Origin: Clostridia bacterium
GTDB lineage: Bacteria > Bacillota > Clostridia > Christensenellales > RUG350
Direction of reading: 5' to 3'
Assembly (NCBI GenBank): GCA_017631635.1
Contig: JAGBSX010000022.1
Span: forward strand, 18,659 to 82,658
DNA: 64,000 bases
This document shows, piece by piece, positions 18,033 to 27,686 of the stretch; within the stretch, counting starts at the first letter, position 1; each line of letters starts with the position of its first letter. The translations under genes and the position numbers were made by a program. The notes below the pieces were generated by a model. It worked only from the letters and a program-made list of their open reading frames with translations. It ran no database searches and was not told where the DNA came from.

Positions 18033-18725
18033 TTACTCTGCTTGCGTATCGGTAGTGGTAGTCTCACTCTCCGTGCTAGATGCGTCTGCTACGGTAGAGT
18101 CCTCGACGTCGTCGGTAGGAGCAGACACTACTGTCGCGCCTACGTTTTCATTATCAGCATTAGAAAATACCTTGAATACAGTCAAAAATAGTATCTTGAT
18201 ATCTAGCCATAGGGATAGATTGTCTACGTACCACACGTTGAGTTTGATACGCTTGTTCCACTCTACGTCTTTGCGACCATTTATCTGTGCCCAACCGGTG
18301 ATACCTGGACGCACGTCAAACATACGCAGTTGCTCCTCTGTATATTGGTCGATAGGCCAAGGGTGATAGGTGAGAGGTGGACGTGGTCCTATGAAACTCA
18401 TATCTCCCTTTAGCACGGAGAAAAACTGAGGTATCTCATCTAGAGAGGTGCGACGCAAAAACTTGCCCACCTTGGTCACACGAGTATCTCCCTTGCCAGA
18501 GTATACGCCACTACCAGTCTGCTCAGCGCCTACGCACATGGAGCGAAACTTCCATATCTTAAATACCTTGCCACCTTTGCCTATACGCTCTTGTTTGAAG
18601 ATAACAGGACCTTTGGAGTCTAGTTTGATAGCGATAGCAATGATTAGCATAGGTATAGCAGATATGATGATGCCTAGTAGTGAAAATATTATGTCAAATA
18701 ACCTTTTGAAAAAATGTCTATACAT
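18033..18725 (-). CDS. Initiating undecaprenyl-phosphate sugar phosphotransferase (small bacterial sugar transferase type)
   Basis: 230 aa, one N-terminal TM helix. Motifs KFRSM, DEIPQF, GDMSFIGPRPP. First gene of the locus. Carries an unusual acidic Ser/Thr-rich C-terminal tail. Confidence 0.9.
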   Translation of the reverse strand: MYRHFFKRLFDIIFSLLGIIISAIPMLIIAIAIKLDSKGPVIFKQERIGKGGKVFKIWKFRSMCVGAEQTGSGVYSGKGDTRVTKVGKFLRRTSLDEIPQFFSVLKGDMSFIGPRPPLTYHPWPIDQYTEEQLRMFDVRPGITGWAQINGRKDVEWNKRIKLNVWYVDNLSLWLDIKILFLTVFKVFSNADNENVGATVVSAPTDDVEDSTVADASSTESETTTTDTQAE

Positions 18726-18817
18726 ATCAATCCTTCTCTTGTTGTAGCGCTAGTGTTTGCAACACAACGTTTTGTTTTTATTTTTCTACTACGCTCCGTA
18801 GGTAGACGCAACTATAG

Positions 18818-18846
18818 TTATATATAACTATACCAAAAAAAGTCAA
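18818..18846 (-). promoter_or_regulatory. Candidate promoter of the polysaccharide operon
   Basis: Minus strand reads TTGACT (18846-18841), then 16-17 nt, then TATATA/ATATAA. The -10 lies inside a perfect 20-nt palindrome (18813-18832). Confidence 0.4.
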
Positions 18847-19046
18847 TAAAAATAGGCGTGTACCAAGAATTTTTCTACGATACCACCTATTTTAACTCTT
18901 TTTACTCAACCACGCGACAAAACGACGGTGTTTTTTCTCTCACGCTTGCAGTTTTGGAGAGTGAGTCTAGTCAATTATAAAGGTACTAAGCGACTGACTA
19001 TCCACAACTTATGCAGGTTTTTTATAATTTTGTACTCGCTATAAAT

Positions 19047-19152
19047 AAAAAAAGCACCACTGTGGTGCTTGCAGCACGGAAGCCCGCATCCTCTTCCCTT
19101 TAAGCGGCCAATTACTTGTAAAGATCTAGAGTCGATACAAGAGTAATGCTAC
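19047..19152 (-). ncRNA. Candidate small RNA 1 (family not recognised)
   Basis: Bounded by the perfect consensus promoter at 19159-19187 and an intrinsic terminator, AGCACCA-CAG-TGGTGCT (19053-19069) plus U7. About 105 nt with an internal 10-bp bulged hairpin. No ORF with a credible SD. Confidence 0.5.
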
Positions 19153-19156
19153 TGTA

Positions 19157-19197
19157 ATATTATATGCAAATATTTATGATTTGTCAACAGGTTTTTT
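19157..19197. repeat. 41-bp direct repeat, copy 1 (carries the sRNA1 promoter)
   Basis: ATATTATATGCAAATATTTATGATTTGTCAA(C/T)AGGTTTTTT is identical to 19407-19447 except for one base. Confidence 0.9.
19159..19187 (-). promoter_or_regulatory. Perfect consensus sigma70 promoter (TTGACA-17-TATAAT) for sRNA1
   Basis: Minus strand reads TTGACAaatcataaatatttgcaTATAAT, with an A-rich UP-like tract upstream. Confidence 0.7.
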
Positions 19198-19299
19198 ATA
19201 AAAAACTAATAAACAAACAAATTTGTTACGTCGTCGAGGCTGTTGACGGCACAAGCAAGAAAATAATGCCTATAATGACTGCATATAAAGCAAAAGTAA

Positions 19300-19402
19300 A
19301 AAAATAAAAAGGAAAGTAAACACTTCCCTTTGAAAATCCCATGCGAGGTAGATATTTATAACCCCTACCACCACGTCCGAAACGAGCGCATGCGGTCTTT
19401 TC
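19300..19402 (-). ncRNA. Candidate small RNA 2 (family not recognised)
   Basis: Bounded by the perfect promoter at 19409-19437 and a terminator, GGGAAGU-GUUU-ACUUUCC (19311-19328) followed by U5AU7. About 100 nt. Contains a GGTAG...CTACC hairpin and CATGCG/CGCATG pairing. Confidence 0.5.
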
Positions 19403-19406
19403 ACAT

Positions 19407-19447
19407 ATATTATATGCAAATATTTATGATTTGTCAATAGGTTTTTT
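19407..19447. repeat. 41-bp direct repeat, copy 2 (carries the sRNA2 promoter)
   Basis: See copy 1. The two copies are 250 bp apart. Confidence 0.9.
19409..19437 (-). promoter_or_regulatory. Perfect consensus sigma70 promoter (TTGACA-17-TATAAT) for sRNA2
   Basis: Sequence identical to the sRNA1 promoter. Confidence 0.7.
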
Positions 19448-19506
19448 TAATTTTAATAAAAAAAGGTACATAACGACCACAAGGCAACGGTATATGTCTT
19501 TCTTGA

Positions 19507-19535
19507 TTGACAAAATATAAAAGGAGGCATATAAT
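19507..19535 (+). promoter_or_regulatory. Perfect consensus promoter TTGACA-17-TATAAT facing the small-ORF cassette
   Basis: TTGACAaaatataaaaggaggcaTATAAT. The spacer contains the AGGAGG SD of ORF 19538, and the ATG lies only 3 nt after the -10, so the promoter and SD/ATG signals overlap. Confidence 0.55.
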
Positions 19536-19537
19536 AT

Positions 19538-19741
19538 ATGAGAGATTGGGATGAAAACAAGCATCCAAGAAACGCACTTGGAGAATTTACAAACAAAAGC
19601 ATTGCAGAATTAAAATCTGAAATCATAGAAATTATTCCCTATAAAAAAGAGCCGATTATACTTGGAGGTGTAATATGGAAGAGAAAGATAAAAACAAAAA
19701 AATACCCTATAGATTTACTTGTCCTATACCGGTGGAAGTAG
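19538..19741 (+). CDS. Hypothetical 67-aa protein with an N-terminal WDENKHPRNALGEF motif
   Basis: AGGAGG lies 10 nt upstream. The 3' 67 nt overlap the next ORF in the -1 frame. The motif resembles the KHPR(D/N)xxGxF motif that I recall from phage and conjugative-element proteins (unverified). Confidence 0.45.
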   Translation: MRDWDENKHPRNALGEFTNKSIAELKSEIIEIIPYKKEPIILGGVIWKRKIKTKKYPIDLLVLYRWK

Positions 19742-19869
19742 TAGGATACGTTGAGATAAGTGAAGAAGATAGAAAAAAGTATAGAGAACAACATATAAAA
19801 TCTCAAAAATATTTTGGTATAGAAACCAATCCTGAAAATATTACAGAAATAGACTACGACAACTTATAA
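19675..19869 (+). CDS. Hypothetical 64-aa protein, paralog 1 (PYRFTCP...EISEEDRKKYREQHIK...NPENITEIDYDNL)
   Basis: SD GGAGGTG 4 nt upstream. 64 aa, about 75% identical to ORF 19953. Confidence 0.6.
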   Translation: MEEKDKNKKIPYRFTCPIPVEVVGYVEISEEDRKKYREQHIKSQKYFGIETNPENITEIDYDNL

Positions 19870-19952
19870 TTGAAAAAAAAGCACCTGATTTATAGTTGTT
19901 GATATGTATAATGATAAAGACAAATATATTGTGTATTTAAAAGAGGTACAAT

Positions 19953-20147
19953 ATGAAAAAAAGTGATAAGAAAAACAAACTACCCTATAGATTTACTTGT
20001 CCTATGCCAGGCAGGTCTGTAGGACATGAAGAGATAAGCGAAGAAGATAGAAAAAAGTATAGAGAACAACATATAAAAACGCTTAAACATTTTGGAATAG
20101 AAATCAATCCTGAAAATATTACAGAAATAGACTACGACAACTTATAA
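19953..20147 (+). CDS. Hypothetical 64-aa protein, paralog 2
   Basis: SD AAGAGG upstream. Tandem duplicate of 19675-19869 (278-bp period). The C-terminal 17 aa are identical; a variable patch follows the CP motif. Confidence 0.65.
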   Translation: MKKSDKKNKLPYRFTCPMPGRSVGHEEISEEDRKKYREQHIKTLKHFGIEINPENITEIDYDNL

Positions 20148-20227
20148 TTAAAAAATATAAAGTTACTGTGCGAATATATGAAAAAAACGAGACTATGAAT
20201 TTGAAATAATAAGAGAGGAAAATGTAA

Positions 20228-20503
20228 ATGACTAATGAAGAATATATTAATTATATCAAAGAACTGATTTCTTCTTCCAATGAGGCTGATTATGTGGCTT
20301 TTGTTGGAGTTAAGTATAACATTAAGGATAAGATAATGTCATTTATCAAAAATAACGATATATCGTGTAAGCACCTGTGGGAAGATAGTGTTGAGGGGGA
20401 TAAATCAACTGAAGATTGGCACAAACTTATACTTTATGTAACTGATTTGTGCAACAAAGTAAACCCAAGTGGAAAAGTAGGATTGTATATAAAAAACAAA
20501 TAG
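20228..20503 (+). CDS. Hypothetical 91-aa protein
   Basis: SD GAGAGGA upstream, then an ATG-TAA-ATG start-stop-start arrangement. No family recognised. Followed by a terminator. Confidence 0.55.
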   Translation: MTNEEYINYIKELISSSNEADYVAFVGVKYNIKDKIMSFIKNNDISCKHLWEDSVEGDKSTEDWHKLILYVTDLCNKVNPSGKVGLYIKNK

Positions 20504-20516
20504 CAAATATCAAAAT

Positions 20517-20550
20517 TAAAAAAGCACTTGCGATAGCAGGTGCTTTTAAT
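20517..20550. terminator. Bidirectional rho-independent terminator (small-ORF cassette / nadR)
   Basis: 10-bp stem AAGCACTTGC/GCAGGTGCTT (one G-U pair), loop GATA, flanked by an A-run and a T-run. Confidence 0.7.
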
Positions 20551-20567
20551 TTGCAAAGAAAGTAACT

Positions 20568-21602
20568 TCAAAACTGTGTTGTGATTCCAAGCTCTGCAAT
20601 CAGTTTTTTAGCTGTTTCAAAGCGTTCCAAGTAGTCTCCGGAGACACAATGGTATGTAATATTGTTTTGCGCGAGTGCTTGTTTGATTTGCTGACTGTAC
20701 CTTTCTCTGTCCTCATGAATTTTCTTATTTCTTGTACCGTCTTGGATAAATTCCACATCCGGCTCAAGAAACAAAACCAAATCCCACTGTGTCATATCGC
20801 TGATTGCAGTAGCCATTTTTTCACATATTTCAATTTCTTTGGGATTTGTCAAAATCAACCGAGAGTAAAATAACGTTGTAACTGCATCGGTATCCACGAA
20901 CAAGACGCGATTGCTTTTTTTGGCAGCATCCATGATCTGCAAGCGTTGACGGAGTAGATTCTCATATAAATCCTCCGCCATCATAAAATCCTCACCGCCG
21001 GCATAATCCGATGTGATTCGCCCGTATTCCGCCACATAGTTAGTATTATAGGCAAGTGCTAAATTTTGAACAAGAGTGCTTTTTCCGGTGCTTTCTCCGC
21101 CTACGACCAAAACCTTTCGTGCATAATAATCCTTACAAACATCCGGTATATAGTCCCAATGCGCGCTCGCCCAAGTACGTATTTCCGTTGAACTGATCGG
21201 AACCTCTTCTCGATCAAAATAGATGACTTGGCTTTCCGGACAGTATAGGGATTCAAATCGATTTGTTCCCAAATAGTCGCTTCCGCAAAATACTACATCA
21301 ATGTGTTTACCAATGGCACTCTTAATGTCCATGGCACCCTTTTCCCAATAATAGTCGGTATTATATTCTTCTTTCGATACAGCTTTGTCTTCGATCAAAA
21401 GAATTTTGACATTTGGTAGATGTCTCGTACTGTTAAGAATCCAACGATATCGAAGCTCTTTAGGTGTTGATTCGCGTCCTTCGCACCAACTGATCACAAT
21501 ATACAGTTCTTCGCATACGGATGCAGCTTTAATGATATCGGATATATGCCCTAAATGAAGGGGATCAAAGGATCCTCCGTACATACCTGTTTTATATAGC
21601 AT
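20568..21602 (-). CDS. nadR: NadR-type bifunctional NMN adenylyltransferase / ribosylnicotinamide kinase (no HTH domain)
   Basis: 344 aa. N-terminal GGSFDPLHLGH nucleotidyltransferase motif, central P-loop GGESTGKST. Overlaps pnuC by 11 nt. Confidence 0.8.
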   Translation of the reverse strand: MLYKTGMYGGSFDPLHLGHISDIIKAASVCEELYIVISWCEGRESTPKELRYRWILNSTRHLPNVKILLIEDKAVSKEEYNTDYYWEKGAMDIKSAIGKHIDVVFCGSDYLGTNRFESLYCPESQVIYFDREEVPISSTEIRTWASAHWDYIPDVCKDYYARKVLVVGGESTGKSTLVQNLALAYNTNYVAEYGRITSDYAGGEDFMMAEDLYENLLRQRLQIMDAAKKSNRVLFVDTDAVTTLFYSRLILTNPKEIEICEKMATAISDMTQWDLVLFLEPDVEFIQDGTRNKKIHEDRERYSQQIKQALAQNNITYHCVSGDYLERFETAKKLIAELGITTQF

Positions 21603-22284
21603 TTTTCTGACGAGCCTCCTTTTCCCATTTGATTAACATGATAATAGCATTACCCAAGTATACTCCCCACATCAGAAGTGTGGCAATATTGTCACTTCCG
21701 TTGCGGAAATCACACCACCACATATATATGCTGAAAACATCCACCGCAATCCAGATCCACCACTGCTCTGCATACATACGAATAGAGATAACCATAGCAA
21801 CCACAGATGAAACTGTAGTAAAGGCATCAACGAATGGCATTACGTCCCCAATGTGTTTAAGAAGCAATCCATACAAATATGTTGCTATAGCTATTGTAAC
21901 AATTAACAATGCAATGCCATACGGACGCATCTTGCGTTTTTCGACCTCACCGGTTTCTGTATTGATATGCTTGCTCCATACGATGAGACCTATAAATTGC
22001 ATAGGAATATAAAAAAACACATTTAGCATTGTTTCTCCATATAGTGCTGCTCGGTAGGAAATAATTGCGTATAACACACAATTCACAAACCCGAACAGAT
22101 AGGCTGATAGTTTTCCTTTTCCGGTGCAGACAACGCATGCAACACCTGTTAGGGAAGAAATAATACCCATTAATGAATCTCCCCAATAGATAGACAGCCC
22201 AGTAATTGTTGCGCAGGTCAGAATCAACCAAAAAACCTCAAAAGGTTTCCAACCGGTTAACTCGTTTTTGATTAATTTTCGCAT
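21592..22284 (-). CDS. pnuC: Nicotinamide riboside transporter PnuC
   Basis: 230 aa, 7-8 TM helices, PnuC-like N-terminal pattern (TGWKPFE...W...CVV...GK...). Operon with nadR. Confidence 0.85.
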   Translation of the reverse strand: MRKLIKNELTGWKPFEVFWLILTCATITGLSIYWGDSLMGIISSLTGVACVVCTGKGKLSAYLFGFVNCVLYAIISYRAALYGETMLNVFFYIPMQFIGLIVWSKHINTETGEVEKRKMRPYGIALLIVTIAIATYLYGLLLKHIGDVMPFVDAFTTVSSVVAMVISIRMYAEQWWIWIAVDVFSIYMWWCDFRNGSDNIATLLMWGVYLGNAIIMLIKWEKEARQKNAI

Positions 22285-22528: not shown

Positions 22529-22884
22529 TGGTGGAGGTGAGGAGAGTCGAACTCCCGTTCAATACAATAGCCGATAATCCTTCTACATACTTAGTCGGTA
22601 TATTGTCATCTTACTACTATCGCCTACCGACAGGCTATAATAGTCGTTATCCCGTATTACCCTATATCCCTACGGGAGTCAGGTATAGAGTTGTCTGCAT
22701 AGTTGATGCCGAGTCTAATACTGCAGAAGATACTAGGTCGACATCGCTGACTTAGGCAGCGAAAGCAAATGAATTGCTGTTAGTTTTGTTTGCGTTTAAA
22801 TTTAATTTTTCGTTTTGACAGAGCCGAAACCTCTGGTATGCTTCTATCACCCTCTACTTGTACTGTCGAATCCGGTACACCCCC
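22529..22884 (-). ncRNA. ssrA: tmRNA (transfer-messenger RNA, SsrA)
   Basis: 5' end is GGGGGUGUACCGGAUUCGACAG. 3' end is GGGAGUUCGACUCUCCUCACCUCCACCA (T-arm plus acceptor with encoded CCA). The G3:U pair is an alanine identity element. Internal tag ORF at 22793-22752: GCA AAC AAA ACU AAC AGC AAU UCA UUU GCU UUC GCU GCC UAA. Confidence 0.9.
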
Positions 22885-22908
22885 GTATACCGATATGGGT
22901 GGAGGTAT

Positions 22909-22937
22909 ATATTAGCACAAGACAAAAAAAAATGCAA
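22909..22937 (-). promoter_or_regulatory. Predicted ssrA promoter
   Basis: Minus strand reads TTGCAT-17 nt-TGcTAATAT, about 25 nt upstream of the mature 5' end. A short precursor leader is expected. Confidence 0.5.
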
Positions 22938-23055
22938 GAGTTTTGCTCGGATTTGGAGATATAGGTATTTGTACTTTTTATTTTGTCGATATATAGGCGT
23001 GCAGTCAAAAAAATGAAAAAATGCAAGTAGATAGAAAAATAATATCCGAAAAACT

Positions 23056-27579: not shown

Positions 27580-27657
27580 AGAGCACCTCCTAGCATTATG
27601 ACTGTATTATAAATGCAAAATAGTCGAATTGTCAATCAAGTTTAGTGTGAAAATCCC

Positions 27658-27686
27658 TTGATGAAATCGAGAGTGTGTGATATAAT
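27658..27686 (+). promoter_or_regulatory. Predicted promoter of the Cys-rich protein gene
   Basis: TTGATG-17 nt-TGaTATAAT. The spacer carries GAGAGTGTGTGATAT, identical to 3548-3562. Confidence 0.6.

Follow-up and report, generated by a model that had tools for sequence, protein, structure and literature searches.

The window analyzed here, a stretch of 64,000 nucleotides (nt) of contig JAGBSX010000022.1, comes from an uncultured member of the Christensenellales, kin of Candidatus Scatosoma and Borkfalkia from animal guts. On its minus strand, upstream of a polysaccharide operon, lie two tandem units, unit 1 and unit 2, which we interpret, with moderate confidence and from comparison of sequences, as two autonomous accessory genes for small noncoding RNAs (ncRNAs) in a phage-derived AT-rich islet of a ruminant-gut bacterium. 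This interpretation is carried by the promoters and terminators that bound the units, by the presence or absence of whole cassettes between strains, and by a predicted fold of unit 1 that is kept while its interior sequence is exchanged. The candidate small RNA (sRNA) genes are cleanly bounded and previously undescribed.

Promoters, terminators and transcribed bodies

The signals and predicted transcripts at the site are as follows.

19405-19447, minus strand: promoter module of unit 1, with an A-rich upstream tract, -35 TTGACA (19437-19432), a 17-nt spacer and -10 TATAAT (19414-19409)
19298-19404, minus strand: predicted unit 1 RNA, about 105 nt, with a predicted start at G19404 or G19402
19298-19331, minus strand: intrinsic terminator of unit 1, stem-loop 19331-19308 of 10 bp with a loop of 4 and a U-run, -9.5 kcal/mol; conserved in L099 and L100
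19153-19197, minus strand: promoter module of unit 2, with -35 TTGACA (19187-19182), a 17-nt spacer and -10 TATAAT (19164-19159)
19040-19152, minus strand: predicted unit 2 RNA, about 110 nt including the terminator
19070-19052, minus strand: intrinsic terminator of unit 2, stem-loop of 8 bp with a loop of 3 and U7, -9.8 kcal/mol
19507-19535, plus strand: third perfect promoter, TTGACA-17-TATAAT, divergent from unit 1 and kept in all haplotypes

An initial annotation of this DNA had described a 41-bp direct repeat carrying minus-strand consensus promoters with an A-rich tract, each followed after about 100 nt by a clean intrinsic terminator, and that description stands. The two copies of the repeat (19157-19197 and 19407-19447) differ by one mismatch (98% identity), the promoters of unit 1 and unit 2 each match TTGACA-17-TATAAT at 12 of 12 positions with an A-rich tract upstream, and both hairpins with their U-runs were located. 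The two perfect promoters on the minus strand are joined by the third, on the plus strand, which had gone unmentioned and which is a partial inverted copy of the unit promoter module (19401-19438 against 19506-19543; 38 nt, 79%). Perfect TTGACA-N17-TATAAT sequences occur three times in the 64 kb, all inside 19159-19535, against an expectation of 0.02, and none of 100 shuffles reached three; the promoter module as such is present in only two copies in the 64 kb, both at this site.

Conservation of the promoters extends to the relatives compared below. The 29-nt core of the unit 1 promoter is kept at 100% in contigs L016, L017, L018, L099 and L100, and it is unchanged among L016, L017/L018, L099/L100 and the window type while the adjoining sequence differs by 5-10%. 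In addition, the 41-mer of the unit 2 promoter and the unit 1 promoter of L016 match at 100%.

Several side observations concern these promoters. The inverted repeat around the third promoter takes in the first transcribed bases, TATAATATATG[A/T]GA. In a related species (L088, 14680-14810), a strong promoter that starts with a shared 11-mer, TTGACAAATCA, stands directly upstream of what appears by eye to be a transfer RNA (tRNA) gene, a case that hints that this -35 context may typify stable-RNA promoters in the lineage. Contig L105 breaks exactly at the promoter repeat, and L016 and L017 break inside the unit 1 terminator (at position 1); these breaks fit assembly-graph branching that arises from the repeat and from co-occurring haplotypes.

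Promoter and terminator of each unit are 100-110 nt apart, within the 50-300 nt of a stand-alone sRNA gene, and the signals establish both units, as predicted from the DNA, as autonomous transcription units. The RNA cores have 48-49% GC and their flanks 20-33%. Two further claims of the initial annotation were borne out, namely that the transcribed bodies are unrelated beyond a short shared sequence, which proved to be the 9-mer AAAGGGAAG only, and that the units hold no open reading frame (ORF) preceded by a Shine-Dalgarno sequence: no conserved translated ORF was found, and the ORFs that cross unit 1 differ in frame and sequence between its alleles and lack ribosome-binding sites.

Presence and absence of cassettes between strains

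Relatives of the site were obtained as contigs from ENA, Logan and NCBI, reached via protein look-ups, some of them through spurious ORFs. Comparison among them defines the following elements.

19437-19188, minus strand: cassette 1, 250 bp, from TTGACA to ...AAAAACCTG
19188-19297, minus strand: trailer of cassette 1, 110 nt, ending in the 14-mer TTATAAAAAACCTG at 19201-19188 and 95% identical in L099
19014-19187, minus strand: cassette 2, 174 bp, beginning at TTGACA and closing with the second TTATAAAAAACCTG copy (19027-19014)
18726-19013, minus strand: leader of the polysaccharide operon, starting at CATAAGTTGTGG; the stretch 18726-19027 is 97-98% identical across the three haplotypes

The haplotype called H2 (the window, L001, L002, L104 and L105) carries allele A of unit 1 together with unit 2. 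Haplotype H1 (L099 and L100) carries allele B of unit 1 only, with window position 19027 joined straight to 19188 and a single copy of TTATAAAAAACCTG retained. Haplotype H0, represented by L107, L109 (from the metagenome-assembled genome GCA_017507495.1) and L110, has neither unit; here ...ATTAAAACAAAAACCTG is joined straight to CATAAGTTGTGG, the start of the operon leader, and unit 1 and the cassette 1 trailer are absent together in all three contigs. H0, H1 and H2 all carry the same polysaccharide operon (98% identical), its leader (97-98%) and the plus-strand promoter. The units are accessory, being present or absent between strains as whole cassettes, and it follows from the three haplotypes of one site that each unit is a discrete cassette running from TTGACA to ...AAAAACCTG.

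All haplotype junctions fall at the AAAAACCTG core, and the 14-mer TTATAAAAAACCTG has two sites only in the 64 kb, both of them cassette ends. Two H2 cores fused into a simple hybrid do not give the junction seen in H0. No terminal inverted repeats of the cassettes were seen on inspection, the core repeat being a plain A-rich 9-14-mer, and the data are compatible with either insertion of cassettes at the core or their loss by recombination between short repeats. Two known kinds of modular element were considered for these cassettes and rejected. For an integron cassette array, no integrase was found among the Pfam-scanned ORFs (capsule operon, islet ORFs, nadR, pnuC and a flavin adenine dinucleotide (FAD) oxidoreductase), and the core is a plain A-rich 9-14-mer. 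For a dispersed repeat of the miniature inverted-repeat transposable element (MITE), BOX or RUP kind, the module occurs only twice in the 64 kb, no exact match to it turned up among 185,579 species representatives, and no terminal inverted repeats were seen on inspection.

Two alleles and one fold in unit 1

Allele A of unit 1 is that of the window, and allele B is shared by L016, L017, L018, L099 and L100. Between the window and L099, identity is 93-100% in the plus-strand side, the promoters, the 5' end of the RNA, the 3' strand of stem P1 with the terminator, the trailer, the operon leader and the first operon gene, and the difference lies in one block.

19343-19389, minus strand: swapped interior of unit 1, 47 nt, unalignable between the window and L099

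When the two alleles are folded separately, both give the same Y shape, in which stem P1 is followed by the hairpins P2 and P3 in a three-way junction and then by the terminator. The closing stem P1 consists of UGAAAA/UUUUCA, CC/GG and then six variable base pairs, which are CAUGCG/CGCAUG in allele A and CUUGAG/CUCAAG in allele B. In the alignment of unit 1 (four distinct sequences; the MAFFT register is imperfect in P2 and outer P3), 97% of cells are paired and six pairs are changed on both sides, a level of pairing and compensation that none of 500 shuffles reached and for which slid controls gave 0-2. Covariation, which the initial annotation had proposed as the check for a structured RNA, supports one in unit 1, with one fold shared by the alleles and six double compensatory changes, seen between two independent alleles only. 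In this single comparison the predicted fold of unit 1 is kept across a block swap of its interior, and this interior is probably a swappable specificity module. Neither the swapped interior nor the cassette polymorphism had been noticed in the initial annotation.

Searches for known families and relatives

The window was searched with the Rfam 15 covariance models at the gathering threshold, and positions 18700-20600 additionally at E<=10. At the gathering threshold, tmRNA (transfer-messenger RNA) models were the only matches in the window (22529-22943), and at E<=10 the units drew DapZ alone, which scored 21.9 bits (threshold 56) and lay over a terminator. ARAGORN likewise reported only the tmRNA in the window and no tRNA. 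The initial annotation had recognized no tRNA, SRP, 6S, RNase P or riboswitch in the units, and this is upheld by the Rfam search, which gave no family at threshold in either unit; a literature search returned nothing matching these units.

Similarly, no relatives were found beyond the contigs described above. The islet had no BLASTN match in phage and plasmid collections, the exact 29-mer promoter was absent from the 185,579 GTDB species representatives, and an exact 25-mer was absent from JGI metagenomes. A relaxed promoter pattern gave 11 matches in IMG/VR, alike only over promoter-like stretches of 29-39 nt, and the conserved ends of unit 1 with a variable gap between them had no match in IMG/VR; the sole JGI match to the unit 1 end pattern (L106) was discarded, as it falls inside a coding region. 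BLASTN against 80 syntenic loci of related species, collected via the FAD oxidoreductase beside the tmRNA gene, gave no homologue, and the weak promoter-like matches in those loci were dismissed as ordinary strong promoters, one of which precedes a tRNA. A covariance model of unit 1 (R1) detected no further copy, either in the window or across 1.28 Mb of viral and related loci; a match in L065 (E=0.11), apparently inside a coding region, was attributed to chance. In the search for targets, a same-sense match of 14 nt came up at 27648-27661; it falls in an ordinary promoter region and was rejected.

Genomic neighborhood

The GC content of the islet (18726-20567), 32%, lies below the roughly 42% of the surrounding sequence, in keeping with the initial view of a compositionally foreign island. 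Downstream of the units on the same strand, 14 co-oriented polysaccharide genes extend from 18725 to 4899, including Bac_transf (the first gene, 18725-18033), glycosyltransferases, EpsG, a pyruvyl transferase, a flippase and an acetyltransferase; the units lie 290-680 nt upstream of this operon. In the conserved leader, an extended -10-like element, TGGTATAGT, is seen at 18826-18850 on the minus strand. This element may be the operon's own promoter, which, if real, would explain operon expression in H0 without the cassettes.

On the other side, a set of small ORFs stands behind the plus-strand promoter, which is predicted to drive it.

19675-20503, plus strand: small-ORF set, with 64-amino-acid (aa) paralogs at 19675-19869 and 19953-20147 and a 91-aa ORF at 20228-20503

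The 64-aa proteins match phrog_8857, of unknown function, at E about 1e-6, with no other match in defence and annotation libraries, and a relative, P0007, lies just upstream of the terminase in phage contig L015. Beyond the small ORFs come nadR-like and pnuC genes (20568-22284) and then the tmRNA gene (22529-22884, minus strand), and in L016 the small-ORF islet directly abuts the 3' end of the tmRNA gene (there at about 1030-1390). Because the neighboring ORFs match phrog_8857, a relative adjoins a phage terminase and the L016 islet abuts the tmRNA gene, we regard the islet as phage-derived. No integrase, att duplication or other prophage gene was seen nearby. The neighboring FAD oxidoreductase has a best identity of 66% to any GTDB representative.

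The two 64-aa paralogs, both with strong ribosome-binding sites, stem from a tandem duplication with a 278-bp period (19665-19877 and 19943-20155), and the composition of the set varies, being 64+64+91 aa in the window, 64+67 in L016 and 64+91 in L017, L018 and L108. A 67-aa ORF (MRDWDENKHPRNALGEF...; 19538-19741, plus strand), annotated in NCBI metagenome-assembled genomes, overlaps the first 64-aa gene; since its ATG is only 3 nt past the -10 hexamer, it is probably outside the plus-strand transcript, and it could be either a relic or an erroneous gene call. A hairpin resembling a bidirectional terminator, AAAAAAGCACTTGCGATAGCAGGTGCTTTT (20512-20553), separates the 91-aa ORF from the convergent nadR-like gene and draws several weak Rfam sRNA matches. 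The tmRNA gene encodes the tag ANKTNSNSFAFAA; a "tmRNA_permuted" Rfam match over its 5' part (22752-22943, minus strand; 51 bits against a threshold of 47), within what is a standard tmRNA, is probably a cross-match between related models. In L017, L109 and L110, a different minus-strand gene (147 aa as called in L110) is found on the tmRNA side.

Interpretation and alternative explanations

Under the explanation that we favor, each unit is a complete cassette: an A-rich tract and the shared sigma-A consensus promoter come first, then an RNA body of 80-110 nt that is richer in GC, then an intrinsic terminator, and at the end a short trailer that closes with AAAAACCTG. At one site, between the divergent plus-strand promoter and the operon leader, the cassettes follow each other head to tail, and strains gain or lose them whole. 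Unit 1 would be a Y-shaped RNA with fixed ends, closing stem and terminator, and its interior (part of P1, P2 and P3) would be exchanged as a block with the fold retained. The predicted RNAs would be abundant, their expression level being judged from the promoter consensus only, and would act in trans rather than on the adjoining operon. The interior of unit 1 may contact an RNA target by loop-loop pairing, or a protein partner, encoded elsewhere and most likely on a phage or another mobile element. For unit 2, the proposed function draws on its perfect promoter, its terminator and its behavior as a complete cassette.

Several results weigh against this explanation. Unit 1 is known from just two independent alleles, so its covariation counts as a single evolutionary comparison, and the stability of its core is unremarkable (z -0.6 for allele A and -2.2 for allele B). 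The unit 2 core is no more stable than shuffled sequence, and no homologue of unit 2 was found by BLASTN in the phage and plasmid collections or the 80 syntenic loci, nor by exact segments in IMG/VR. The exact segments sought in IMG/VR with a spacer-like role in mind (the loops of allele A, allele B and unit 2, the 3' half of unit 2 and the cassette 1 trailer) gave zero matches, and an antisense search of the window, the plus-strand mRNA, the operon leader and related loci found no complementary targets above shuffles. The unit family was not found in the GTDB representatives, JGI metagenomes, IMG/VR or the phage and plasmid collections, and the members that were found all come from one narrow lineage.

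The alternative that survives best, which we consider unlikely, is that the units are cis-acting promoter or attenuator cassettes, in which a strong co-oriented promoter and read-through set the output into the 14-gene operon; the leader RNA could then be a processive-antitermination or attenuation element, as in EAR, put or lambda PR'-tR', and strains would differ in capsule expression. The orientation and position of the units relative to the operon speak for it, as does a structured RNA that begins at or near +1 with a terminator after it. Antitermination is common in long polysaccharide operons (EAR in Bacillus, RfaH/ops, LoaP and UpxY), and variable elements upstream of capsule loci are known, such as the pneumococcal cps promoter region. 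However, no NusG, LoaP or Q-like gene was found in the operon or the islet, no alternative terminator/antiterminator pairing was evident on inspection, both predicted terminators look efficient, and where a polymerase- or ligand-binding core would be conserved, the interior of unit 1 is hypervariable. Strains without the units have an intact operon and leader, 97-98% identical to those of the other haplotypes. The initial annotation had placed the units immediately upstream of the operon and co-oriented with it; position and orientation hold, but a functional tie does not, given that the operon is intact without units in L107, L109 and L110 and with unit 1 only in L099 and L100. The units are not an obligatory leader, because the operon exists without them. 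A riboswitch or cis leader of the polysaccharide operon was rejected on the same absence in L107, L109 and L110 and on the hypervariable core.

We hold it to be quite unlikely that the units are decaying phage remnants, that is, early or late promoter-terminator modules left behind when a prophage or satellite close to the tmRNA gene degraded; such modules may still be transcribed without having any present function, and the haplotypes would have arisen by deletion between short A-rich repeats. Such an origin would suit the AT-rich islet with its phage-like small ORFs, the adjoining tmRNA gene (a common integration site), the narrow distribution, the loss of whole units in some strains and the lack of a structural signal in unit 2. 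It is hard to reconcile with promoters that are perfect and identical, with a 29-nt core unchanged while its neighbors differ by 5-10%, and with a predicted unit 1 fold that survives a complete sequence swap, and no integrase, att duplication or other prophage gene accompanies the units.

It is most improbable that the site is a type I toxin-antitoxin or small-protein locus whose product is a 38-aa ORF (19342-19226) or a 47-aa plus-strand ORF (19164-19307), the RNA being the mRNA or the antitoxin: although the 38-aa ORF (MGFSKGSVYFPFYFFTFALYAVIIGIIFLLVPSTASTT), which spans terminator 1, is hydrophobic and the 47-aa ORF was annotated by a gene caller in L001, we rejected this reading because neither ORF has a ribosome-binding site, the 38-aa ORF in L099 lacks its start codon and is shifted out of frame by a 1-nt indel, and the peptides of alleles A and B are unrelated. 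The hydrophobicity of the 38-aa ORF is due to the T-rich terminator and trailer. The 47-aa ORF is not hydrophobic, and its start falls within promoter 2. A type III toxin-antitoxin system (ToxI-like) was also rejected, as the bodies contain no tandem repeats and the neighbors are the 64-aa and 91-aa ORFs, whose function is unknown, nadR and pnuC.

A more far-reaching form of the sRNA-gene explanation, which we offer as speculative and rather improbable, is that the site is an array of RNA-gene cassettes. Each would comprise promoter, RNA, terminator and a 3' AAAAACCTG core, recombination at the core would bring it in or cut it out, strains would in this way assemble different sets of highly expressed sRNAs, and the specificity module of unit 1, of about 50 nt, would be swapped under diversifying selection. 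Such an array would be like an integron for RNA genes, without a recognizable integrase nearby, and, if true, it would have the look of an RNA-based immunity, exclusion or incompatibility determinant against phages or rival mobile elements.

If transcribed as predicted, the units would be the first candidate small RNAs described for this uncultured gut branch of the Christensenellales, and they come with defined predicted starts and ends and with natural knock-out strains (H0, H1 and H2). A block-swapped interior with a kept fold and the gain or loss of whole cassettes at a fixed core are usual hallmarks of specificity determinants in mobile-element conflicts, and from these two patterns unit 1 could open the way to a mechanism of immunity or exclusion based on RNA that is new. 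Should the units be mere remnants or extra promoters of the capsule operon, the finding is of local interest.

Comparison with known systems

Integron gene cassettes, as well as the BOX and RUP modular repeats upstream of pneumococcal capsule loci, resemble the cassettes described here in that discrete units are stacked at one site, a short core repeat stands at every junction and the number of units varies by strain. The present cassettes differ in lacking an integrase among the Pfam-scanned genes, attC-like architecture and terminal inverted repeats, and in that the units carry their own promoters and are present in just two copies in 64 kb, both here.

The promoter-proximal terminated leader transcripts of phages, such as lambda PR'-6S-tR' and the put RNAs of HK022, share with the units a strong phage-type promoter, a short structured transcript, a terminator and a position upstream of a long operon. 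In contrast to them, the units are accompanied by no Q- or N-like factor, the RNA interior is unconserved, and what lies downstream is a bacterial operon that also occurs where the units are missing.

Tandem multi-copy sRNA genes are known from Listeria (LhrC1-5) and Vibrio (Qrr1-5), where the bodies are homologous and the promoters regulated. As in the present site, these sRNA genes follow one another head to tail, and every one of them has a promoter and a terminator to itself; theirs are paralogs, whereas here identical promoters drive unrelated bodies that share a 9-mer. The Spr RNAs on Staphylococcus aureus pathogenicity islands exemplify the island-borne accessory sRNAs of Firmicutes, and like the units they are short ncRNAs with their own promoter and intrinsic terminator that reside in accessory or mobile DNA and are missing from part of the strains. 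No similarity in sequence or in Rfam links the two; in addition, here one identical promoter module is placed on unrelated bodies, the cassettes are stacked at one core, and one interior has been exchanged.

The nearest functional analogy is offered by the antisense RNAs of mobile elements, among them c4 of P1 and P7, the CI RNA of P4, plasmid RNAI, CopA and Sok, which are stem-loop RNAs of 70-100 nt expressed from strong constitutive promoters. The units differ from these in showing no C4-type match in Rfam, no complementary target in cis or nearby, and no associated repressor, replication or toxin gene. Among these antisense RNAs, elements that are otherwise nearly identical diverge in the loops and stems yet retain the fold, and the same combination of a diverged interior and a kept fold is seen in alleles A and B of unit 1.

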